Source: an uncultured Chloroflexia bacterium (GTDB taxonomy: Bacteria; Chloroflexota; Limnocylindria; Limnocylindrales; CSP1-4). From it: a stretch of DNA of 64,000 nt. The stretch's first letter is position 1. Each line of letters begins with the position of its first letter. Below the pieces are notes generated by a model, which was not told the DNA's origin, did no database searches, and saw nothing but the letters and a program-made list of their open reading frames with translations. The stretch lies in NCBI GenBank assembly GCA_963713975.1, contig OY970218.1, positions 2,528,001 through 2,592,000 of the forward strand, written 5' to 3'. This document shows positions 405 through 24,446 of the stretch, one piece after another. Both the position numbers and the translations under genes were made by a program.

Positions 405-1794
405 CGACACCACGCCACCGGACGTGACGACGCCTGTCCTCGCACCCGATCCTGCCACTGTCGGTGATCCGGTCACGGTCACCGCGACCGCGACCGACCC
501 CAGCGGTGTCGCCTCGGGCGAGGTGAGCATCGACAACGGTCCCTGGACCCCCATGAGCGCCACCGACGGCACCTTCGGCGGCACGAGCGAGGGGCTGACC
601 GGGGCGGTCAACACCGATCACGCCGTGATCGCGATCGCTACCGGCAACGCCCATACCTGCGCCCTAACCACCGCCGGCGGAGTGGAGTGCTGGGGCAACA
701 ACTTCGCCGGCCAACTTGGGGACGGCACGACCACGAACAGCTTGACCCCGGTCGACGTGATCGGCCTAGGAAGCGGAGTGGCAGCCATCGCTGCGGATAG
801 CTGGGACCATACCTGTGCCCTTACTACTGGTGGCGGGGTCAAGTGCTGGGGGGACAACGAGTATGGCCAGCTCGGTGACGGAACGACGACGGACAGCCAT
901 ATCCCGGTCGACGTCGTCGGGCTGGGCAGTGGGGTGACCGCCATCACGATCGGCGCTCTGCACACTTGCGCCATCACCAATGGTGGCGGGGTCAAGTGCT
1001 GGGGCTCTAACGGCGCAGGTCAGCTGGGCAACGGCATCGGCTACAACGACAACTACGCCAGCACCCCCGTCGATGTCGTCGGGCTGGGCAGTGGGGTGAC
1101 CGCCATCGCCGCCGGATCCGATACTGGCTGCGCCATCACCACCGGGGGTGGGGTCAAGTGCTGGGGGAACGGCCCTCTCGGAACCGTCGACGGAGCCAGC
1201 TACGATGTCCCGGTCGATGTCTACGGACTGAGCAGCGGGGTGACCACCATCGCCGCCGGATTGAGCCAGCACATCTGCGCCGTCACCACCGGTGGAGGGG
1301 TCAAGTGCTGGGGGCTCAACGAGTCGGGCCAGCTCGGGGGCGGCACCACCGACGACAGCAACACCCCGGTCGATGTCTCGGGCCTGAGCAGCGGAGTGAC
1401 CGGGATCGCCATCGGCGGCGGCTACACCTGCGCGCTCATTGGGGGCGCGGTCAAGTGCTGGGGGGGCAACTCGGAGGGCCAGCTCGGCGACGGCAGCTAC
1501 ACGAGCAGCTTGACAATGGTCGATGTCTCGGGCCTGAGCAGCGGAGTGACCGCCGTGGCCGCCGGTGCCGTAAACACCTGCGCTCTCCTCGCGAGCGGGA
1601 CCGTGCAGTGCTGGGGCTCGAACGAGTATGGCCAGCTCGGCAACGGCACGACGACCAACAGCCCGACGCCGGTCGCGGTCGGTCTCACCTCACTTGCACC
1701 CGGCAGCCACGAGGTGTGTGTCCGGGCCACCGACACGGTCCCCAACACGAGCGACGGCACCGCCTGTGCGATGCTCACCGTGAACGCGCCGTAA
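1..1794 (+). CDS. Secreted/surface RCC1 (BLIP-II-like) repeat protein with carboxypeptidase-regulatory-like and Ig-like domains; 5' truncated by the window
   Basis: Seven repeats of the type HTCA-x-TxGGVKCWG-N-xGQLG. The frame is open from base 1. A duplicated 95-aa N-terminal module is present. Confidence 0.85.
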   Translation, partial: QPNAAGYPDTYYGGTDLGSATAIPVSGDTVLDIALAGPPAVYTLGGLVTGSGGTPLTGAVVHVILDDGTYLGNDPVDGTGAYELTLASGSYKLWIQPNAAGYPDTYYGGTDLGSATAIPVSGDTVLDIALAGPPADTTPPDVTTPVLAPDPATVGDPVTVTATATDPSGVASGEVSIDNGPWTPMSATDGTFGGTSEGLTGAVNTDHAVIAIATGNAHTCALTTAGGVECWGNNFAGQLGDGTTTNSLTPVDVIGLGSGVAAIAADSWDHTCALTTGGGVKCWGDNEYGQLGDGTTTDSHIPVDVVGLGSGVTAITIGALHTCAITNGGGVKCWGSNGAGQLGNGIGYNDNYASTPVDVVGLGSGVTAIAAGSDTGCAITTGGGVKCWGNGPLGTVDGASYDVPVDVYGLSSGVTTIAAGLSQHICAVTTGGGVKCWGLNESGQLGGGTTDDSNTPVDVSGLSSGVTGIAIGGGYTCALIGGAVKCWGGNSEGQLGDGSYTSSLTMVDVSGLSSGVTAVAAGAVNTCALLASGTVQCWGSNEYGQLGNGTTTNSPTPVAVGLTSLAPGSHEVCVRATDTVPNTSDGTACAMLTVNAP

Positions 1795-1892
1795 CCCCGC
1801 AGGGACGCATCGCACGGCTGCACGCCCGGTCTCCCAGCGGGGCCCGGGCGTGTCGCCGGGTTGGTGTGCGCCCCATCAACCAAGGAGTCCTG

Positions 1893-2546
1893 ATGCAACG
1901 CACGGCCGTGACGTCGAGCCCGCCCGGCAAGGTCCGGCTGGCCGCGGTGATCCTGGGCCTCGCGCTCCTGGGGTCGGCCGGGCTGGCCGCGTGCGGCAAC
2001 ACGCCGGATGAGGCCTCTCCCAGCAGCCGGCCGGCGTCGGTCGCCCCCTCGACAGCCGGTCCGTCGCCGGCCGCGAGCCCAACGGCCATGGCACCGGCCA
2101 CGCAAGGGCCCACGGCATCGCCCGAGCCCTCGGCCGCCACCGCGGAGCTCGACGTGTGTGGCCTCATCCCTCAGACGCTGCTGGCCTCCGTCCTCGGTGG
2201 CGAGGCGGCATTCCCCAAGGCCATCCCCGCTGCCGGCTGGAGCGCGGGACAGTGCGCCTGGAGCGGCCCTGCCGCGAGCTTCATCGTCCGCGTCGGCACG
2301 GCGCCCACGATCGCGGCCTTCGGTGACCCTGCGGCACCCGACGCCGAGGCGATGCTCGCCGCGTTCGCGGCCGCGGCCGACGCGGCGGGCACGGCGAAGA
2401 AGGTCCAGGGCATCGGCGATGGGGCCGTACTGGGTCCGGCGGGGATCGCCGCCTATCGTGATGACACGTACCTCGAGGTCACGAGGCTCAACCTCACCGA
2501 CCGGCAGCTGACCGACGTCATGAAGCTGGCCATCGGGAACCTCTAG
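1893..2546 (+). CDS. Hypothetical lipoprotein
   Basis: AAGGAG RBS before ATG 1893, hydrophobic stretch ending in LAAC lipobox, Pro/Ser/Ala linker, and DVCGLI...CAW motif. Confidence 0.7.
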   Translation: MQRTAVTSSPPGKVRLAAVILGLALLGSAGLAACGNTPDEASPSSRPASVAPSTAGPSPAASPTAMAPATQGPTASPEPSAATAELDVCGLIPQTLLASVLGGEAAFPKAIPAAGWSAGQCAWSGPAASFIVRVGTAPTIAAFGDPAAPDAEAMLAAFAAAADAAGTAKKVQGIGDGAVLGPAGIAAYRDDTYLEVTRLNLTDRQLTDVMKLAIGNL

Positions 2547-10491: not shown

Positions 10492-13237
<2,746 letters not shown>

Positions 13238-13241
<4 letters not shown>

Positions 13242-14463
13242 GAGGCGATCCCGTCCACGAGGGCGGCGGCGCGGGCCAGGCACGCGGCCGCGGACAGGTT
13301 GGCGTCCGCAAACACGGGTCCGGCCGCACCCATGGCACTCGCGAGGGCGGGCTCCGCGCGAAGCCAGGTGAGCGCTTCGAGGATGGCCCCGGTTTCGTCC
13401 AGCCGGGACCGTGAGTCCCGGCGCCGGATCGCCCCATCTCCCGGGCCGAGGGGCTGTCCTCGGGCACGGCGGCGACGATCGGCCGCCCCGCGGCGAAGTA
13501 GCTCGTCAGCTTGGAGGGCAGGGACATGTCACTCCTGCATGGCCCGCTCCGACAGGAGCAGGACGTCTGCCGCCGACGAGGAGGGTCGCGTAGACGCCGT
13601 CCGGCTGGACCGGCAGGAGGTCCAGCGTGGCGATGCCCTCCGCGGCGTCTCGAAGCCGGTTCGCCTGGTTCCCGCCCCCGACGAGGACGAAGTGGACCGG
13701 GTCTCCCCGCTGCGCGGCAAGGCGGGCCGCATCGACCACTTGGTCCAGGCCCTGCTTGGCGCCCATGTTGCCCGCGTGCAGGACGATCTGGCGGTCGTCC
13801 GGCCAGCCGAAGCAGCCGGCGGATCGACGCCGCGTCCGGCTCGGCGGCGCAAGGCGAGCCCAGTTGGGGACGTGGTGGATCCGGTCCTGGCGCGACGCCG
13901 AGCGAGGTGAGGTACGGGGTGAAGGCATCGGTGACGACCGCCGACCGCCTGGGCCCCGCCTGCCGCCCAGCGCCTCGGCGGCGGCCGTCACGCGGGCGAC
14001 CGTCCCGCCGCCCGCGATGCCGGACTGGCGGGCTGCCGGGCCCATGAGGTCCTGGAACAGGAGACCGTACGGGCTCCGGAACGCGCCGCCCGGCAATCCG
14101 CGCGAGGATGCCGCCGGAGAGGCTGGGCACGACGCCCAGGATCGCGTCCGGGCGGTTGGATCGGGAGGCTCGCGAGGAGTCCCGTCAGCCCGAAGGTGCC
14201 CTCGTAGACGGCCCGCTTGCCGGCCGACTGGGTGCCGGGGACGTAGTGGGCGGCCCGGATGACCGTCACGCCATCGATCTGCTCGGTTGCGAGCAGGCGG
14301 CGGGGCGTGCCGCGGTTGAGCCGCCAGCCGGGGTAGCTGGGCAGGCCGGTGATCACGTGACCTCGTCGCCGCGGGCCGCCAGGTGCTCCGCGAGTCCCGC
14401 GGTGTACGGACCGACACCGCTTGGCTCCGGGCGGTAGTTGATCCCGACGATGAGGACGCGCAT
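13238..14463 (-). pseudogene. WcaI-like GT4 glycosyltransferase with multiple frameshifts
   Basis: Fragments MRVLIVGINYRPEPSGVGPY, HAGNMGAKQGL and [14 protein letters not shown] lie in different frames. Confidence 0.75.
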
Positions 14464-14488: not shown

Positions 14489-16126
14489 TCAGCCGTTGGG
14501 CTCTGTCAGTGCGCCGGTGGCACCCGTCGCGGCGGCGGCCGCCGCGGGGGCGGTGCCCGTCGCGGCCTTGGCGTCCTCGTTCTTGGTCCCGTAGTAGTCG
14601 TAGTAGACGTATTCGTTGGCCGCCCGAGCCGACATCCGGTTGAGCGCGACGCCAAGGACCCGGGCGCCGGCCTTCGCGAGCGCCTCACGGCCGTGCTGCG
14701 TCGCCGCTCGGCGGGTGCGCCCGCTGTCGATGACCAGGAGCGTCCCGTCCGTGATGGAGGCCAGGATCGCGGCGTCGGTCACGGCCTGCAGCGGCGGGCT
14801 GTCGACGATCACGAGGTCCGCTGCCGCCGTCAGCCGCTCCAGGATGGTCCGCATCCGCTGTGAGGCCAGGAGCTCGGCCGGGTTGGGCGGCAGCGGCCCC
14901 GTGGTGACGATCCGCAGGTTCTCCTGCTCCGTGAGCTGCGCGACGTCGTCGATGGTGGCCTCGTCGCCGCCCAAGAGCGTCGTCAGGCCCCAGGCGTTGG
15001 TCATGTCGAACAAGCGGTTGACGCCGGGCTTGCGCAGGTCGGCGTCCAGGAGGATGACATTCCTGCCGGCCTGCGCGAACGCCACGGCGAGGTTGCCGGC
15101 GGTCGTCGTCTTGCCCTCGCTGGGGATGGAGCTGGTGACGAGGAGCGTGCGGACGGGCTCGTCCACGGAGGCGAAGGCGAGGTTCGTGCGCAGCGTGCGG
15201 TAGGCCTCCGCGGCCGGACCGCGCGGGTAGAGGAGGGTGGCGAGGCGGTAGATGTCGCTGCGGCCCTTCTCGCTCTTCATCTTGAGGATGGTGCCCAGCG
15301 TCGGGAGGCCGGTGGCTTCCTCGACGTCCTCGGACGACTTCACGGTGTCGTCCAGGTACTCCATGACGAACGCGATCCCCAGGGCGATGAGCAGCCCGAC
15401 GAGGATCGCGAGCAGGGTGTTGAGGAGCACCCGCGGGGAGGAGGGGAGCGCGGGCGGTGTCGCGGGATCCACGACGGTGACGGCGTTCGCGGTGGACCCG
15501 GCGATGCCCACCAGCGCGGCGTAGGACTGGCGGAGGCTGGCGACCTGTGACTTGAGCGCCGTCAGCTGCTGGTCGTCCTCGACGGTCCGGGCCGGGAGAC
15601 CGGCCAGCCGGTCGATCTCCGCCTGGGTTTCCTCGATCTGCGCCTGGGTGGCCATGACCTGCTGCCCGATGAAGGCCTGGACCTCACCGTTCTGGCCGTA
15701 GACGCTGGCAGACGCGGCGATCATCTGGCTCGCGATGTCGTTGGCGAGGTCCGCCGCAAGCGCCGGATCACCGTCCTCCACCGAGACCGTGACGAGGGTG
15801 GAATCGCGCGCCGCCGTGGACGTCACGAGCTTGCGGAACTCGTCCGGGGTGGTATCGAGTCCGGCGTCCGCGATCACCTGGGCCAGGATGGGGCCGGTAG
15901 TGGCGAGGTTCGCGTACGTCTGCGAGATCCGCTGGCTTGCCAGCAGGTCGTTGTAGTTGACGCCGGACGATGCGCTGGCCTCGCCCACGAGCAGCGTGAC
16001 CTGCGCCTCGTAGACCTTGGGCAGCGAGATCGAGACGAGATAGGCGGAGCCCCCGGCCAGCAGGGCGCCTGCGACAAGCAGCCAGAACCAATGGCGGACG
16101 ATCTGGCCCTGGCGGCGGAGATCCAT
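14489..16126 (-). CDS. Polysaccharide co-polymerase / tyrosine autokinase (Wzc/CpsCD fusion)
   Basis: Wzz N-domain, EGKTT Walker A, DADLRKP, VDSPP, and a C-terminal Tyr cluster YVYYDYY. Confidence 0.92.
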   Translation of the reverse strand: MDLRRQGQIVRHWFWLLVAGALLAGGSAYLVSISLPKVYEAQVTLLVGEASASSGVNYNDLLASQRISQTYANLATTGPILAQVIADAGLDTTPDEFRKLVTSTAARDSTLVTVSVEDGDPALAADLANDIASQMIAASASVYGQNGEVQAFIGQQVMATQAQIEETQAEIDRLAGLPARTVEDDQQLTALKSQVASLRQSYAALVGIAGSTANAVTVVDPATPPALPSSPRVLLNTLLAILVGLLIALGIAFVMEYLDDTVKSSEDVEEATGLPTLGTILKMKSEKGRSDIYRLATLLYPRGPAAEAYRTLRTNLAFASVDEPVRTLLVTSSIPSEGKTTTAGNLAVAFAQAGRNVILLDADLRKPGVNRLFDMTNAWGLTTLLGGDEATIDDVAQLTEQENLRIVTTGPLPPNPAELLASQRMRTILERLTAAADLVIVDSPPLQAVTDAAILASITDGTLLVIDSGRTRRAATQHGREALAKAGARVLGVALNRMSARAANEYVYYDYYGTKNEDAKAATGTAPAAAAAATGATGALTEPNG

Positions 16127-16255
16127 CGGTTGGCAGTCCCCCTACGGGATCCCGGGGAGGCGGATCCTCCCGATCACGACGCGTCGGCCTGCGTCGCCGT
16201 CACCGGGTCCGCTTGCGAGTATACAGACGGGTCCGAGCGGTCAAGCGGTCGCCGA

Positions 16256-18263
16256 TCACGGGGTCGCCCGGGGCGCATAGCGCAGCTCCAGCGTCAGGTC
16301 CTGGTCGAATGTCGTCTCGAGGGTGGCAGTGTCCCCGACGACGGCCAGCTCCGGGTCGGCGTCGGTGATCAGGAAGCCTTCCGGAACACGGATCGTGAGG
16401 GCGAGGGGTCCCGGCAGCAGCCCGGGCTGCTTCTGGATCGTCAGGCGGTAGGTGCCGCCGGTCTCGTCCGCGTCCGCGGCGTACGGGCTCGTCCAGGCAT
16501 AGGTGAGGTTGGTCCGCCCGGCCGGGATCTTGAGGTAGTTGGCGAATACCGCCCGGCCGTTGGCCTCCTCTACGACCGCCGGATCGCTGAGCGCCACGTA
16601 GCTCCCGCCAGAGACCTCCTCGACGCGACTCAGCTCCGGCACCAGGAGCCGGAAGTACATGCCCAGGAGCCGGAGGTCGCCGGCGATGGGCAGTGCCCGG
16701 TATGGGGCGCCTACGTCGGTCTCGATGCCGTTGTCCCAGGTCACCTTGAGGCGGTCCAGGGCGTTGCCGTACTCGTCGATCTGCACCTCGAGATCCAGGG
16801 ACCGGGTGGTGACGGCGTTGAGCTTGGATGTGGGGGCGACGTTGGAGTCGACCGGGTACACGTAGTCGCCGGGATCCTGCCGGATGGCGACCGTCGAACC
16901 CGTTCTCGACGACGAGGGCCTGGGCATCGGGGTCCTTGAACCAGGCGAGCAGGAGCCGACCGCGGCGGTAGGTGTCGGCGTCACCGGCCAGCCGTCCCCA
17001 GCTCTCGGGCGGCAGGCCCAGCAGCGAGGCGAACAGCTGCTGCGCGAAGGGGCCGAGGACGGCCTTGCGTTCCGTGGTCCCGTCGGCCGTCGCCGCCCAG
17101 ATCGCCTGCATCAGCTTGATCGTCGTCTCGCCCGGGGCGATGGTCACGTCATAGCCGGGCACCGCGATCGGCCCCGTGAGCTCGAGCAGGCGGTCGATGG
17201 TGTCGGTGCTGAGCGCGATCACGCCGTCGATATGGGTGTCGCCCGACTCGTTCTCGTAGAGGCGGATGGCGTCCCGGGCGCTGGTGGGGAAGTCCGGGGA
17301 CCAGTTCGCATCGGCAAGCTGCCAGGGCTGCTGCTCGCCCAGCAGGTAGTCGTGCAGCTCCTGCGGGCCCTTGATGAACGGATAGTCCCACGGCAGGTCG
17401 ATGTGGGCGATGTCCTGGAACGCGCTCTCGGTGATCCGGCCCTTGTCGAAGGCGATGATCCCGTAGCTCCCGGTGTAGCCGCCGGTGGGTCGCAGCTCGG
17501 CCGGGTTCTGGGTCAGGACCAGGTAGCGCCGCGGCGCGTCCCAGCCGAGGATCGCGGGCAGCGGGCCGCTCGCCGTGGCGAGGCCGTCCACCATCGGGCC
17601 GTACTCGTCCAGGCGGGTGATCAGGGCGTCGCGCGCGTCTTGCAGCGGGGCCACGAGGCCATCCGGTACGGTGGCCAGCGTCTGTCTCGCCGACTTTATG
17701 GCGGCCTGGACACCGGCGATCGGCTCGCGGGAGGTGGCCACCAGCTCCACGAGCTGGGACAGAGCCGATCCGCCCGCCGGGTCCGCCGCCTGCGCCTCCT
17801 TGATCTCGACGAACCGGCGCCCGATCGCGACGCCGTCGTCGGCCGCGCCGAACAGCTGCCCGGCCGCCGTCACGATGGCGTCGGCGCCCTCGATGTTTGC
17901 GGCCGTGACGGGGATGGCACGCGCGACCGCCACCAGGGGGTCGTTGGCCAGCAGGTATTCCAGGTTGTTGAAGCGGGCCCGGGATGCCGCCAGGTCCGTC
18001 TCGAGGGCATCCACCGTGGCCCGGTCCATGTCCAGGCCCACTTCTCGGATCCGGCCGACCATCTGCTCGAGGTCGCCACGGATCGCCTTCGCGTCGTCGT
18101 AGGCCGGGAGGTAGCGGAAGGCCGCCAGGGCGCCGCCGATGGCGACGAGGACGACCAGGAGCGCCCCGACGCCCAGGCCGACCAGCAGCAGCTTGCGGCG
18201 GCGGGAGCGGACGCGCCGTCGCCGCCGACGTCGGTGGTTCGTGGGTGCGGGATCCTCGCTCAC
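16256..18263 (-). CDS. DUF4012 domain membrane protein, one frameshift near 16890
   Basis: YLVLTQNPAELRPTGG, DANWSPDFPTSA and IDGVIA; the C-terminal part (NVAPTSKLN, IQKQPG) is in an adjacent frame. Confidence 0.8.
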
Positions 18264-18973
18264 GACTGCGGCACCGCGATGACGATGAACCGCGGCGCCG
18301 TCGCGAAGTAGGAGGTCGAGGTCTGGAGCGTGAGCTGCTCGGCGGGCGTGGGATCGAGGTACTCCAGGGCATCCCACGGGACCTTCGGGAGGACCTTGGT
18401 CACGACGTAGGTGCGCTGCGTGCCATCGGCGAGGTCGAGCAGGACGATGTCACCCTTGCGCGCGTCCCAGAGCTTGATGAACATGCCCTCGCGGGCGTGG
18501 CCGTAGATGTAGATGTTCGTGCCGCCGCCCGGCCACCCGGTCCCGGGGAAGTGGGCCGCCTTGCCGATCGGGGCATCGATCCCGTCACCCTCGATGATCT
18601 TCTGGTCGATCCCGAGGCGCTCGATACGGATGCGTTTGGCCTTGACCTCGCCGGCGGAGGTGGCGTCGGGCGTCGCGTCCGGGGTCGGTTCGGGCGCTCC
18701 GCTGGTGTCGGGCGCGGGCGTTGACGTCGGGGCGCCGGCTATCGGCGGTTCCGTCGCGGCCGCTGGTTCCGTCGTGGCCGCGTCCGTCGCCACGGCGGCC
18801 GGAGGGGTGGTTGCCGAGGACGCCGTGCCGCGCAGGCCGCCACCCAGGATGAAGGCGAGCGAGGCGCCCGCGAGGACGATGACAAGGACGCCCGCGGCAA
18901 TGACCACGCCACGACCACGGCCGGCCATCCAGCCCGGGCGCTCGGAACGAGGGCGGCGGTCTGGATCGGTCAC
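18260..18973 (-). CDS. Sortase family protein (catalytic Cys replaced by Ser)
   Basis: N-terminal TM, PGGGTNIYIYGHAR, GDIVLL, YVVT, LTLQTS and PRFIVIA. Confidence 0.85.
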   Translation of the reverse strand: MTDPDRRPRSERPGWMAGRGRGVVIAAGVLVIVLAGASLAFILGGGLRGTASSATTPPAAVATDAATTEPAAATEPPIAGAPTSTPAPDTSGAPEPTPDATPDATSAGEVKAKRIRIERLGIDQKIIEGDGIDAPIGKAAHFPGTGWPGGGTNIYIYGHAREGMFIKLWDARKGDIVLLDLADGTQRTYVVTKVLPKVPWDALEYLDPTPAEQLTLQTSTSYFATAPRFIVIAVPQS

Positions 18974-19035
18974 CTGATCAGGCTAGCCCAATCCGCCGCA
19001 GGAAAGGCAGAGCGATCTGGCGCCCGGGATGCGCG

Positions 19036-19557
19036 TCAGCGCCTCGCCAGGACCCCGCGAAGGACGAGGCCGCCACCGCCTGCAAGCGCCAGCAGGGCGA
19101 GCAGGGTGCCGAGGAATGGCTCCGTGCGAGTGGGCATCGTGCCCGCCAGGGTGGAGGTGCGCGGGAGGCTCGCCGTGGTGATGTTGAGGGTGATCGTGCC
19201 GACGACTCCATCGGCCCTGGCACGAAGAACCCGGCTGCCGGGCACGCAGGCAATGTTGACAGTCGTCTTCGCGACACCGCTGGAGTTCGTGGTCGTCGGC
19301 GTCTTGTTGATCCTGTCCGACTTGGTCACGCGCGACTTCCAGGACCACGCGACCGGCTGGCCCGCGATGCGTTTGCCATTCTTGTCCTGGATCGTCGCCG
19401 AGATCGTGACGTTGACGCCGCACTTGAGCTTGCCGCCGGGCCGGGACACGGAGACGCTCGAGGCGACCTCACCTGCGTACCCGAGGGCGGTGCCGGCAGC
19501 GAAGACGGCGAGCGTGAGGGCAGCGAATGCGGTGAGCCACCGCCGGCGACTGGTCAT
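19036..19557 (-). CDS. Secreted Ig-like (Big-1) protein with LPxTS cell-wall sorting signal
   Basis: Signal peptide, TTNSSGVAK Big-1 motif, then LPRTS, hydrophobic helix and a terminal RR. Confidence 0.75.
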   Translation of the reverse strand: MTSRRRWLTAFAALTLAVFAAGTALGYAGEVASSVSVSRPGGKLKCGVNVTISATIQDKNGKRIAGQPVAWSWKSRVTKSDRINKTPTTTNSSGVAKTTVNIACVPGSRVLRARADGVVGTITLNITTASLPRTSTLAGTMPTRTEPFLGTLLALLALAGGGGLVLRGVLARR

Positions 19558-19715
19558 CCCTGTCATCTCCCCAGCTTCGGGACGCATCCTCACAGTCGGC
19601 TCACCAAACTACGCGAGCCGCCATGGTTCCCGGCCATCATACGCTCGGGCCGCAACGGCCAATTGGCCCAGGTCGCGGCCTACCCGATCGGGCGTCACTG
19701 GGGCAGGATGGGGGG

Positions 19716-20993
19716 ATGCGGATCCTCCTCTGGCACGGCTACCTGCTGGGCGGCACCGGTTCCAACGTGTACACGCGCCAGCTTGCCCGCGCGTGGATGC
19801 ATGCCGGGCACGACGTCACGGTCTTCTCACAGGACCCGGATCCCGGCGCATACGACCTGGGTGGCGCGCGTGTCGTCCGCCCCGATGTGGGGGGCCTGCT
19901 GCCGGTCTTCGTGCTCGATCGCTACGACGGTTACGAGGTCAAGCTGCTCGGGGACTGCAGCGAGGACGAGCTGGGAAGATGGGTGGAGGCGAATGCCGCG
20001 GCCGTGCGGGCGCATCTCCCGGCCGACCTCGTCTTCGCCAATCACGTCCTGCTGGGCGGCCCCGTGGGGATGGCGAGCGGCGCCCGCTTCGCGGTGAAGG
20101 CCCACGGCTCCGAGCTCGAGTACGCGATGCGGGGCGACGCGCGGCTGGCGGCCTGGGGAGCACAGTGCCTGCGGGAGGCCGCCGCGACGTTCGTCGGCTC
20201 CGCCCACACTCGCGGCGTGCTCGAGGACGTGTGTGGTCATGTCGATGGCGTGCACGAGGTCCCGCCCGGTGTCGATGTCGATTCCTGGCGACCGGAGGCC
20301 CGGTCTGTTGCGCTCGAGGCCCTCATCGCGGAGGCACGAGCGGACCCACCGAACCCGGGCAACGCGGAGGAGCGGCTGCCCGACGAGGGGAACGCCGAGC
20401 GACTGGCGCGGTTCCTGGCCGGCGACCGGCCGACGGTCGTGTACTTCGGGAAGCTGATGCGCAACAAGGGCGTGCACCTGCTCCTCGAGGCGCTCCGGGG
20501 TGGGGCTGTGAAGGGCGTCGACGCGCGTGCCGGGGTCGATGCGCGTGCTGTCGTCGTCGGGTTCGGGGAGGATCGCGCGGAGCTGGAGGCGATCGCCGGC
20601 CCCGATGTCCTGTTCACGGGGCCGCTGGAGCACCGGCACCTCGTGCACCTGCTCGCGCTGGCCGATGCGTGCGTCGTGCCGTCGATCTTCCCCGAGGCCT
20701 TCGGGATGGTCGCCGCCGAGGCTGCCGCGGCCGGCTGCCCGCCGCTCGTCGCGCGTCACTCGGGACTGGCCGAGATCGCCGATGGACTGGAGGCGGCGTA
20801 CCCGCTGGCACTGCGCCACCTGGCGGGCTTCACCACGGGCGATGTGGCGGATTTGCGCGCGAAGCTCGACGAGCTGTTGGGCCTCGGTCCGGACGATCGG
20901 GAGGCGATCCGCGAGGCGGCACGCCGGGCCGTGCTGGAACGCTGGAGCTGGACCGGCGTCGCCCGGCGCCTGCTGGAACCGCTTGGCGGCTGA
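19716..20993 (+). CDS. GT4 glycosyltransferase
   Basis: MRILLWHGYLLGGTGSNVY, YFGKLMRNKG and PEAFGMVAAEA. Confidence 0.9.
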   Translation: MRILLWHGYLLGGTGSNVYTRQLARAWMHAGHDVTVFSQDPDPGAYDLGGARVVRPDVGGLLPVFVLDRYDGYEVKLLGDCSEDELGRWVEANAAAVRAHLPADLVFANHVLLGGPVGMASGARFAVKAHGSELEYAMRGDARLAAWGAQCLREAAATFVGSAHTRGVLEDVCGHVDGVHEVPPGVDVDSWRPEARSVALEALIAEARADPPNPGNAEERLPDEGNAERLARFLAGDRPTVVYFGKLMRNKGVHLLLEALRGGAVKGVDARAGVDARAVVVGFGEDRAELEAIAGPDVLFTGPLEHRHLVHLLALADACVVPSIFPEAFGMVAAEAAAAGCPPLVARHSGLAEIADGLEAAYPLALRHLAGFTTGDVADLRAKLDELLGLGPDDREAIREAARRAVLERWSWTGVARRLLEPLGG

Positions 20994-21358: not shown

Positions 21359-22072
<714 letters not shown>

Positions 22073-22082
22073 GGCTGGTCCG

Positions 22083-24446
22083 GTGAGACTGCTCCGGCGC
22101 TCGCTCCGGCGTGACCTGCGCGCGCGGTGGGCCCAGTTCACCGCCGTGGGCGTCACGATCGTCCTCGGCGTCGGGCTGTTCGGCGCCTCGTTCGATGCGT
22201 TCCAGAACCTGACGGCCTCCTACCAGAAGATGTACCAGGAGCTGGCGTTCGCCGACCTAGTGGCGGCCGGCGGGCCCGTGGAGGATGTGGCCGCTGCCGG
22301 GAGCGCGGTTCCGGGCGTGGACGCCACGACGGTCCGGGCCGTGGGCGAGGTCCCGGTCAGGATCGGCGAGCACGACCAGCTCGCCCGGATCATCGGCCTG
22401 CCCGCGGACGGGAAGCCCGCGGTGGACGGCGTCCTCGTCCTGCGCGGCGCGAACCTCGATCCCAGCAGGGAGGACCAGGTGCTCGTGGAGCAGCACATGG
22501 CCGGCGCCCGGAACCTCGAGCCCGGCGACACGCTGGAGGTCATGGCCGCCGATGGCTGGCGAACGGTCGAGGTCGCTGGCATCGTCGCGTCGCCCGAGTA
22601 CCTGTGGCCGGCGCGCAGCCGCCAGGAGGTGCTGACCCCGTTCGACCAGTGGGGCGTCCTGTTCGGCCCGGGCGCGCTTGTGGAGGCGCTGCCTCCCGCC
22701 GCGATCCAGCGCGAGGCCCTGTTCCTGCTGGCGCCGGATGGCCCCGACGGTGCGCTCGGCACACTCGAGGCGGCCATCCTGGGCGCAGGTGCGGTGTCCA
22801 CGGAGACCCAGGATCAGCAGCCCTCGAGCGCCACGCTGCAGGAGGACGTGAACGGGTTCGGCGAGCTCTCGATCGCATTCCCCGCGATGTTCCTGCTGGC
22901 GGGCGCCCTCGCGCTGTCGGTGCTCCTGGGCCGGATCGTGGCGAGCCAGCGGGCGCAGATCGGCATGCTGCTCGCGAGCGGATTCTCCCGTCGCTCGATC
23001 CTGCGCCACTACCTGGCGTTCGGGCTCATCGTCGGGCTGGTGGGGTCCGTGCTGGGTGTCATCCTGGGCGCCCTGGCCGCCGCCACGATCTCGCGGCTCT
23101 ACACCGCCACGATCTCGGTGCCGATCACCGTGATCGAGGTGCGCCCGCTGACGATCCTGGTGGGCCTGGCCATGGGCACGGTCGCCGGAGCGGCCGCGGC
23201 CTACCTGCCGGCACGCCGCGCGTCCCGCACGTCACCGGCGGAGGCAATGCGCGGCGAGTTGCCCGCCGGACACGGCTCCATCAGCCTGGTCGAGCGCCTT
23301 CTCCCGCCGGTTCGCCGGCTGCCGACGCGCTGGCTCGTGTCGCTGCGGGGCCTGGGCCGCAGCCCGCGCCGGACGGTCTCGACGATCCTCGGGATCGCCA
23401 TCGCCACCATGCTGGTCCTCGTGTCGTGGGGGATGATCGATACCGTCCAGGTGCTGCTCGACCGCCAGTTCGGCCTGGTCCAGCGGCAGGATGCCGCGGT
23501 GCTCCTTGTCGCGCCCATGCCCGCCGGGGAGGTGGGGTCCGCGCTCGGGGTTGACGGTGTCGCGGCCGCGGAGCCGGAGCTCGACGCGCAGGGCGCCATC
23601 GTGCACGGGGACGCCCGGTACGCGACCACGATCGTCGGCCTGCGCCCGGACACGACGATGCATGGCTTCATCGCGCCCGACGGGTCCACGCTCGCCCTCC
23701 CGGCGCGGGGCCTGCTCCTCGGTGCCGCCCTGCGGGACCGCCTCGACGTGGGCGTCGGCGACGACGTGGACGTCGACCTGGGTGGCGGGAACGTGACGAG
23801 CCTGCCGGTGGCCGGGTTCGTGGACGAGCCCTTCGGCACGTACGCCTACGCCTCGCTGGATACCGTGGCGGGATTGACCGGCCGGGCCGCCGGTGATCCG
23901 CTCGTGAGCTCCGCGCTCGTCCGGTACGGCGCCGGGGCCGATCCGACGGCGGTCGCGGACCGGCTGAGCGCGCTGCCGACGGTGGCCGCCGTCGTCGCGA
24001 GCCGCGGCCTGTACGACCTCGCCCAGCAGTTCATGGGCCTGTTCTACGTGTTCATCGGGGTGATGCTGGTGTTTGGCGCGGTGATGGCGTTCGCGCTCAT
24101 CTTCAACACCATGACCGCCAACATCGCGGAACGGGCGACCGAGCTCGCGGCCCTGCGGGCGCTGGGGATGGCGAGCGGCACCGTGTCCCGCCTCGTGACC
24201 GCCGAGAACCTCCTCCTGACGATCCTGGGCCTCGTGCCGGGGCTGGTCGGGGGCTACCTGCTGGCCGCCGTGTTCATGGCCAGCTTCTCCAGCGACCTGT
24301 TCAGCTTCGACCTGCACGTGCGCCCCACGACGTTCCTCGTCACGGCACTCTCGATCCTCCTGGTGGCCGTGATCTCGCAGGTCCCGGCCCTGCGGAGCGT
24401 GGGTCGCATGGACCTTGGCCGGATCGTGCGCGAGGGGGCGACCTAA
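22083..24446 (+). CDS. FtsX/MacB-type ABC permease
   Basis: Two FtsX-like TM blocks (QIGMLLASG, ELAALRALG) with large extracytoplasmic domains. Confidence 0.9.
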   Translation: MRLLRRSLRRDLRARWAQFTAVGVTIVLGVGLFGASFDAFQNLTASYQKMYQELAFADLVAAGGPVEDVAAAGSAVPGVDATTVRAVGEVPVRIGEHDQLARIIGLPADGKPAVDGVLVLRGANLDPSREDQVLVEQHMAGARNLEPGDTLEVMAADGWRTVEVAGIVASPEYLWPARSRQEVLTPFDQWGVLFGPGALVEALPPAAIQREALFLLAPDGPDGALGTLEAAILGAGAVSTETQDQQPSSATLQEDVNGFGELSIAFPAMFLLAGALALSVLLGRIVASQRAQIGMLLASGFSRRSILRHYLAFGLIVGLVGSVLGVILGALAAATISRLYTATISVPITVIEVRPLTILVGLAMGTVAGAAAAYLPARRASRTSPAEAMRGELPAGHGSISLVERLLPPVRRLPTRWLVSLRGLGRSPRRTVSTILGIAIATMLVLVSWGMIDTVQVLLDRQFGLVQRQDAAVLLVAPMPAGEVGSALGVDGVAAAEPELDAQGAIVHGDARYATTIVGLRPDTTMHGFIAPDGSTLALPARGLLLGAALRDRLDVGVGDDVDVDLGGGNVTSLPVAGFVDEPFGTYAYASLDTVAGLTGRAAGDPLVSSALVRYGAGADPTAVADRLSALPTVAAVVASRGLYDLAQQFMGLFYVFIGVMLVFGAVMAFALIFNTMTANIAERATELAALRALGMASGTVSRLVTAENLLLTILGLVPGLVGGYLLAAVFMASFSSDLFSFDLHVRPTTFLVTALSILLVAVISQVPALRSVGRMDLGRIVREGAT

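Follow-up and report, generated by a model that had tools for sequence, protein, structure and literature searches.

Sortases are textbook cysteine transpeptidases, and as such they are both antivirulence targets of thiol-reactive inhibitors and the workhorse of protein ligation. Whether the sortase fold can also work in nature with serine as its nucleophile is the question raised by a gene (18260..18973, minus strand) in the stretch of DNA analysed here, a window of 64,000 nucleotides from an uncultured Chloroflexia bacterium of the Limnocylindrales (GenBank assembly GCA_963713975.1, contig OY970218.1, positions 2,528,001 to 2,592,000). An original prediction, made from the letters alone, had pointed out that this gene carries a serine codon where the codon of the catalytic cysteine is expected, that it lies next to a gene for a secreted protein with an LPRTS signal, and that the product might be either a serine-nucleophile sortase with an LPxTS signal or a non-catalytic scaffold. 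The analysis reported below leads us to think that the gene probably encodes an active serine-nucleophile sortase, its catalysis being deduced from evolutionary pattern. The deduction is drawn because a large group of Chloroflexota share this serine, and many of its members are without a Cys sortase. We consider it rather likely, too, that the enzyme is part of a separate clade, recognisable by [IL]Y[AG]HAR ... LTLQT[S/C]T ... PRF, within which Ser and Cys would be interchangeable at the nucleophile position.

Results

The gene was delineated from its open reading frame, Pfam, an AlphaFold2 model and Foldseek. Translation starts at a GTG codon and gives a protein of 237 residues, which ends in EQLTLQTSTSYFATAPRFIVIAVPQS and contains no cysteine at all. 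The model comprises an N-terminal membrane-anchoring helix (residues 21–43, 18845..18913), a Pro/Thr/Ala-rich linker (residues 44–107) of low confidence (predicted local distance difference test, pLDDT, 53–70 over residues 41–110) and a catalytic sortase domain (residues 108–237, 18263..18652) at pLDDT 97–99, of which residues 115–235 match Pfam Sortase PF04203 over profile positions 1–124 of 125 (62.4 bits, the cut-off being 26.6). A profile of 137 relatives, run against the PDB, matches solved sortases of classes A, C, D and E, the best being class A entry 7s56 (E 6e-24), and in the alignment to solved class A sortases His159 (codon CAC, 18497..18499, motif IYGHAR), Ser219 (codon TCG, 18317..18319) and Arg228 (codon CGG, 18290..18292, motif APRF) line up with the catalytic His, Cys and Arg, respectively. 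With the model as Foldseek query the top PDB matches are all sortases (E 2e-9 to 7e-8, template modelling (TM) score by target 0.5–0.78), which, with the pLDDT of the domain, identifies the predicted fold as the eight-stranded sortase β-barrel. The serine predicted for the place of the catalytic cysteine is thus found there both in the sequence and in the profile alignment, and the His, the Arg and the N-terminal anchor are intact, as had been claimed.

No NCBIfam sortase class model (classes A–F and GN) comes near its cut-off with the 237-residue protein, the scores being 28.3 bits against 160 for class E, 24.7 against 165 for class D, 15.7 against 166 for class F and 16.3 against 158 for class GN, with 29 against 39.35 for the generic model TIGR01076. 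Set beside the definition of MEROPS family C60, the protein has the catalytic His and Arg, has Ser219 for the catalytic Cys of TLxTC, and has a neighbour with the LPxTG-like motif, helix and basic tail of a substrate, the variant being LPxT[SD]T rather than LPxTG. By homology, then, the protein is a member of the sortase domain family that stands outside the Cys transpeptidases and the class models, and we file it as a Ser-type sortase and not under classes A–F. Its GTG start is backed by residues 1–20 (MT[DE]PDR...GRGR), which are kept in homologues. Six bases before this GTG lies the hexamer TAGCCT (18980..18985), a possible −10 box of a leaderless transcript; TAGCCT also occurs upstream of the sortase at locus L012 and CAGCCT upstream of that at L005, and the hexamer was not evident by eye in six other upstream regions compared. 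A scan of positions 16000–19900 for sigma-70 consensus promoters and for terminators returned 0 of either. Of the leaderless promoter proposed earlier, therefore, the TAGCCT-N6-GTG arrangement is present and nothing beyond the motif lends it support.

Ser219 recurs throughout the relatives of this protein. Among the 119 nearest non-self homologues from a collection of 5.8 billion proteins, 103 read LQT-S and 16 LQT-C; the few that carry names come from Chloroflexota metagenome-assembled genomes, and the DUF4012 neighbours are named Candidatus Limnocylindrales. Among 29 loci taken from the class's other genomes, the residue is Ser in 27 (TCG 19, TCC 7, TCA 1) and Cys in 2 (TGC), and because three different serine codons occur among the 27, the serine has been kept through synonymous change. 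The earlier argument against a miscall, that TGC to TCG takes two base changes, is correct as arithmetic, although relatives do carry TCC, the one-step intermediate between the two; that a miscall is unlikely follows instead from the frequency of Ser among homologues and loci. Pairwise ratios of nonsynonymous to synonymous substitution rates (dN/dS) for the catalytic domain lie at 0.15–0.57 in all 78 pairs from 13 loci, values that are rough because a strong bias in G+C content at third codon positions (GC3) compresses dS. A class-level tally finds a match at E 1e-10 or better in 136 of 201 genomes (seven genomes flagged unpublished included, which enter into nothing else stated here). The relatives are not independent of one another, and all counts given here describe lineages rather than statistical samples. 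Judged by these homologues, the Ser219 form is a conserved subfamily, neither a miscall nor a strain-specific dead allele; the opposite pattern, all close homologues retaining Cys, had been named beforehand as fatal to a serine subfamily, and only the 16 of 119 do so.

The strongest alternative to a serine nucleophile is a pseudo-enzyme, that is, a non-catalytic sortase homologue which serves as a chaperone, scaffold or retention factor by binding the LPxTST of its neighbour, for instance in concert with the DUF4012 protein, and forms no acyl-enzyme. We regard this as unlikely, in the first place on account of the site itself. Variation was assessed in a combined set of the nearest homologues, 148 representatives at 50% identity and two paralogues from the same genome, of which 268 matched and 217 cover the whole domain. 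As counted from the alignment, the nucleophile column of these 217 holds S in 132, C in 83, A in 1 and P in 1, almost nothing but two possible nucleophiles, whereas in a mere binder Ala, Gly, Thr or Asn would be acceptable too at this position, which is S or C in 215 of 217. His-Ser-Arg (122) and His-Cys-Arg (82) are the prevailing triads, followed by His-Ser-Lys (4), His-Ser-Glu (4) and other combinations in five. When the nucleophile column is left out of tree building, at least 13 Ser/Cys changes are needed on a FastTree tree (215 labelled rows) and at least 9 on a quick IQ-TREE tree restricted to the close clade (126 rows, 106 with S and 20 with C). Forcing the 16 in-group Cys rows into a single clade is rejected by the approximately unbiased (AU) test (delta log-likelihood 84.3, p-AU 0.003), with the reservation that this group was defined by the trait when the FastTree order had already been seen. 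Cys thus reappears repeatedly inside the Ser clade, which also speaks against a pseudo-enzyme, and the swaps occur between sequences with identical flanks (IYGHAR...LTLQT[S/C]TSYY...APRFV). The 18 rows with a classical xGH.../LT.[IVT]TC signature are all Cys, which suggests that tolerance of Ser is peculiar to the YxHAR/LQT clade.

Within that clade, taken as the 174 rows with Ala160 and Gln217 (130 S, 44 C), His159 is kept in 130/130 Ser-type rows, which counts against a pseudo-enzyme, and in 44/44 Cys-type rows, while Arg228 is kept in 122/130 and 44/44, respectively. Since 126 of the 132 Ser-type domains are without any Cys, the nucleophile has not been relocated to another cysteine. Taken together, the restriction of the site to S or C, the recurrent exchange of the two, the retention of His and Arg and the existence of genomes with no other than Ser-type sortases (see below) form an evolutionary pattern that favours a role of Ser219 as nucleophile over one of the protein as scaffold.

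The presumed substrate is encoded directly upstream (19036..19557, minus strand) and is a small secreted immunoglobulin (Ig)-like (Big_1-like) protein, likely starting at the ATG at 19557 to give 173 residues, although the open frame reaches a GTG at 19593; gene callers begin its 41 homologues at MT.RRRW. Its Big_1 match is weak (29.7 bits, under the Pfam cut-off of 34.9), and homologues carry precomputed PF02369. The N-terminus (19470–19557, minus strand, and homologues P0270–P0309) is conserved and signal-like, reading M.S/TRRRWL followed by a hydrophobic stretch, and we take it to resemble a twin-arginine (Tat) signal. At the C-terminus the sorting motif LPRTST (19150..19167) is followed, after a spacer of 13 residues, by the hydrophobic helix FLGTLLALLALAGGGGLVL (19060–19116) and the basic tail RGVLARR (helix and tail together 19039..19116). 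The description of this neighbour as a secreted Ig-like protein ending in LPRTS, a helix and a basic tail accordingly holds, with a Big_1 score below cut-off.

This ending is a family trait, as LPxT[SD]T, a helix and a basic tail conclude 39 of 40 non-self substrate homologues, the motifs being LPNTST in 24, LPRTST in 12, LPRTDT in 1 and two tandem motifs in 2, with an unrelated tail in 1. The tandem cases, P0280 and P0281, have LPRT[ND]T ... LPSTST ahead of the helix. Substrates with LPSTST or LPSTAT adjoin the sortase gene at two loci (L021, L063) of family f3, a more distant one whose sortases read TLQTSTGP...DPRF.

Candidate sorting signals also occur elsewhere in the genome to which the window belongs (G000:C1). 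A regular expression that is loose gave 70 raw matches, of which 9 were judged real-looking by eye. Eight further open reading frames end in an xPxT[SDA][TG]-like motif, spacer, helix and basic tail (e.g., LPETST and LPATDT, and PPDTAT in two identical copies); examples picked by eye lie at 1431886–1437051, 1714527–1715684, 2214147–2214950, 2224937–2225182, 3371540–3372208, 2485131–2486207, 2672142–2673101 and 2986510–2988429.

The same genome, a single contig of 3.62 Mb, has three Sortase-domain genes: the Ser-type gene at 18260..18973, a Cys paralogue and a divergent second Ser type. The Cys-type paralogue (YAHAR ... TLQTCTGN; locus L001, G000:C1:2511172–2514522, open reading frame 1246..1860, plus strand) is of the same clade and, at a distance of about 33 kb from the Ser gene, falls shortly beyond the window; it could do the chemistry for a non-catalytic neighbour, and in that respect favours a pseudo-enzyme. 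The second Ser type (YAHAR ... LWLQTSEGP; locus L003, G000:C1:1098894–1102253, open reading frame 1390..2139, minus strand) is flanked by a CorA-like and a redoxin-like (WCPSC) gene, its relatives show Lys at the Arg position, and a member of its family is present in all ten f1 relatives' genomes examined.

To see which types coexist, PF04203 was searched in 15 relatives' genomes of 84–97% completeness, namely five selected because they have a Ser orthologue and consist of few contigs, the five further f1 genomes that match the Ser orthologue strongly, and five f3 genomes with few contigs or high completeness. Both types are present in four (G149, G188, G098, G200), and the same search detects the Cys sortases of these four genomes and of Bacillus, Corynebacterium and Lactococcus controls. 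The remaining 11 of the 15 (G179, G164, G038, G182, G053, G005, G016, G004, G022, G049, G133) have Ser-type genes only, and in all five f3 genomes among them (G016, G004, G022, G049, G133) the Ser type is the single PF04203 match; in one of these, G022, an LPSTAT substrate adjoins the Ser-type gene. If the conserved sorting signals are processed in Ser-only genomes, a Ser-type enzyme must do so, because no Cys-type sortase is there to do it, and this counts against a pseudo-enzyme in turn. Orthologous Ser-type genes at L050 (G098) and at L051 and L055 (G200) were matched in two frames, being either broken genes or assembly indels.

Between 19593 and 16256 three genes follow one another on the minus strand: the substrate gene, the sortase gene after a gap of 62 bases, and a gene for a DUF4012 membrane protein (16256..18263, DUF4012 104.6 bits), whose GTG start and the stop codon of the sortase share bases (GTGA). 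At all 12 orthologous loci in other genomes (L005–L016), tblastn locates the Ig-like substrate gene before the sortase gene and the DUF4012 gene after it, and at each of these the substrate ends in LP[RN]T[SD]T, spacer, helix and basic tail, so the co-occurrence of the sortase with LPxT[S/D] genes that had been looked for is found. The signal belongs to the clade and not to the Ser forms, because the Cys orthologues at L012 and L013 adjoin substrates with LPNTST and LPNTSA in the same gene order. The earlier proposal of a Ser subfamily with an LPxTS signal is in this way upheld as regards the conserved subfamily, and not as regards a tie between Ser and LPxTS.

The next gene on the same strand (14489..16126) encodes a Wzz/GNVR and P-loop (bacterial tyrosine kinase-like) polysaccharide co-polymerase, and from here a polysaccharide biosynthesis cluster extends down to about 6847 with sugar-nucleotide genes, glycosyltransferases and a Wzx-type flippase gene. 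As the co-polymerase, sugar-nucleotide, glycosyltransferase and flippase genes come next on the same strand, the sortase unit heads this cluster. Within the cluster, open reading frames 10492..11958 (Epimerase) and 11469..13283 (both minus strand, in 10492–13283) overlap by about 490 bases; the latter matches GDP_Man_Dehyd in two stretches and an FkbM methyltransferase domain, and the overlap may be a further frame change or a fusion. On the other side of the unit, divergent from the substrate gene, is a glycosyltransferase family 4 (GT4) gene (19623–20993, plus strand), and downstream of it are an ATP-binding cassette (ABC) ATPase gene and a MacB/FtsX-type permease gene (21386–24446).

The DUF4012 gene itself shows a one-base frame change near 16890 in comparison with its 89%-identical homologue P0310 of 693 residues, in which ENGFDG-AIRQDPGDY is read straight through; this is either an assembly indel or real decay into a pseudogene. 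A DUF4012 profile search of the PDB gave nothing, the best match being a ribosomal protein at E 0.16. The AlphaFold2 model of P0310 (pLDDT 82.6) consists of a helix at the N-terminus, a long bundle of helices, an alpha/beta region and, at the C-terminus, a beta-sandwich; with this model Foldseek returned only weak beta-sandwich matches (TM score by target at most 0.34). A complex predicted for the sortase and the N-terminal 426 residues of DUF4012, with alignments as input, scored 0.00 against a mark of 0.32, in a run with no controls folded that speaks neither for nor against an interaction.

Discussion

By analogy with Cys sortases, an active Ser219 enzyme would work as follows. After export, the neighbouring Ig-like protein would stay in the membrane by means of the helix and basic tail at its C-terminus, where the membrane-anchored, extracytoplasmic enzyme would bind LP[RN]T-[SD]T. 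His159 would act as general base and Ser219 would attack the Thr carbonyl, with the scissile bond lying between Thr and Ser/Asp, to form an oxy-ester acyl-enzyme in place of the thioester. Arg228 would position the substrate and stabilise the oxyanion, and an envelope amine would then resolve the intermediate and so attach the protein to the envelope. The enzyme would act in this manner within the conserved three-gene unit of substrate, sortase and DUF4012 that heads the polysaccharide cluster. A wider proposal, on which we are evenly divided, is that throughout a Limnocylindria-like clade of Chloroflexota sortases are not obligate Cys enzymes, that Ser and Cys are interchangeable in them, and that a Ser-His-Arg sortase, the sole sortase in many species, anchors LPxTST proteins through an oxy-ester acyl-enzyme. 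The acceptor may in this proposal be an envelope glycan intermediate and not peptidoglycan, because the sortase gene is coupled in translation to that of DUF4012 where a Wzx/Wzz-type polysaccharide locus begins.

A number of observations weigh against an active serine sortase, and some of them would equally be expected of a pseudo-enzyme. The eight Ser forms (of 130) without Arg228 carry Lys or Glu in its place, which occurs in 0 of 44 Cys forms and hints, at the level of sequence, at relaxation in some Ser lineages. Over the 174 clade rows no column other than 219 separates S from C (highest mutual information 0.35 bit, compared with 0.82 for site 219), and the co-variation analysis turned up neither a compensating change nor an acidic third residue of the kind that might aid a serine nucleophile; both the Arg replacements and the missing compensation fit a non-catalytic protein. 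The dN/dS values and the AU test are subject to the GC3 bias and the trait-defined grouping noted with them, and if the DUF4012 frame change is real, the three-gene unit may be decaying in this strain. As for precedent, an excerpt of PMC4827206 relays from another study that the engineered C184S variant of Staphylococcus aureus SrtA has dramatically lowered activity, leaving it nearly inactive, and a part of PMC5578623 has SrtA C184S serving as a cys-less background. The part of PMC4671257 that concerns SERA5 shows that a Ser-for-Cys variant of a cysteine-protease fold can be non-enzymatic. Biochemical evidence for any Ser-type sortase was not found in the literature searched, nor was a description of a natural Ser sortase or of the strings TLQTS or TLXTS in the full texts, a coverage outside which lie most subscription journals and supplements (e.g., the family tables of PMC6744442, in which such families could be included).

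An active hydrolase would account for the conserved serine as well: it would cleave the sorting signal and release or mature the Ig-like protein, with water rather than an envelope amine resolving the ester. Oxy-esters are less prone to aminolysis than thioesters, and no acceptor can be identified from the sequence, both of which suit a hydrolase. That Cys orthologues freely take the place of the Ser form in an unchanged gene order suggests, however, that both forms carry out the same reaction, and serine DD-transpeptidases demonstrate that Ser acyl-enzymes can transpeptidate. No computed result separates hydrolase from transpeptidase. We hold hydrolysis to be improbable, more so than a pseudo-enzyme. 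The idea that the serine is an artefact of sequencing or assembly, or that this strain alone carries a dead allele of an otherwise ordinary Cys sortase, has a negligible chance of being right, since for all that the assembly contains at least one single-base frame change nearby (in DUF4012), it is refuted by the Ser-bearing homologues, which come from independent sources, and by the Ser loci of other genomes with their three codons.

If an active serine sortase is indeed what this gene encodes, it would demonstrate, as a natural and widely conserved Ser-type sortase, that oxy-ester chemistry is within reach of the fold, and the close pairs of Ser and Cys orthologues would constitute a natural experiment on what the thiol contributes to transpeptidation. 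Such enzymes could yield ligases that are insensitive to oxidation and metals and have a new recognition motif, LPxTST. The subject bears as well on how surfaces are built in poorly known, monoderm-like Chloroflexota, in several genomes of which the Ser type, tied to DUF4012 and a polysaccharide locus, is the only sortase.

Comparison with Known Systems

Compared to the classical sortases of classes A–F (PF04203, MEROPS C60; for instance SrtA of Streptococcus agalactiae and Streptococcus pyogenes, 7s56 and 3fn5, and SrtE of Thermobifida fusca, 9j0t), the protein has the same fold, the same His and Arg columns and an N-terminal anchor, and its substrate carries an LPxT-type signal with helix and basic tail. 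It differs from them in having Ser in the Cys column and no Cys anywhere in the protein, in its His motif, which is YxHAR rather than xGH(R), in the invariant Gln of LQT[S/C], in its LPxT[SD]T signal with a spacer of 10–16 residues before the helix, and in the coupling of its gene to DUF4012 and a polysaccharide locus. The families concerned have been seen together before: an excerpt of PMC6744442 counts the sortase and DUF4012 families as common to Gram-positives, Chloroflexi and candidate phyla radiation (CPR) bacteria, and places DUF4012 in a bifidobacterial capsule locus, with no mention of Ser. LPXTS, for its part, is already known as an alternative motif of streptococcal class A sortases from the title of PDB entry 7s4o, an LPATS complex of S. 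pyogenes SrtA, and from papers on sortases; this Cys enzyme can take Ser in the place following the scissile Thr, its main motif being LPXTG, whereas here LPxT[SD]T is the native, conserved signal. Closest of all are the Cys orthologues and paralogues of the same Chloroflexota clade (L012, L013, P0020, P0023 and the L001 paralogue), which at 50–60% identity share YxHAR...LTLQT.T...PRF, the gene order and LPNTS-type substrates, and from which the Ser forms differ only in the nucleophile, TGC for Cys against TCN for Ser, with no other column tracking the difference.

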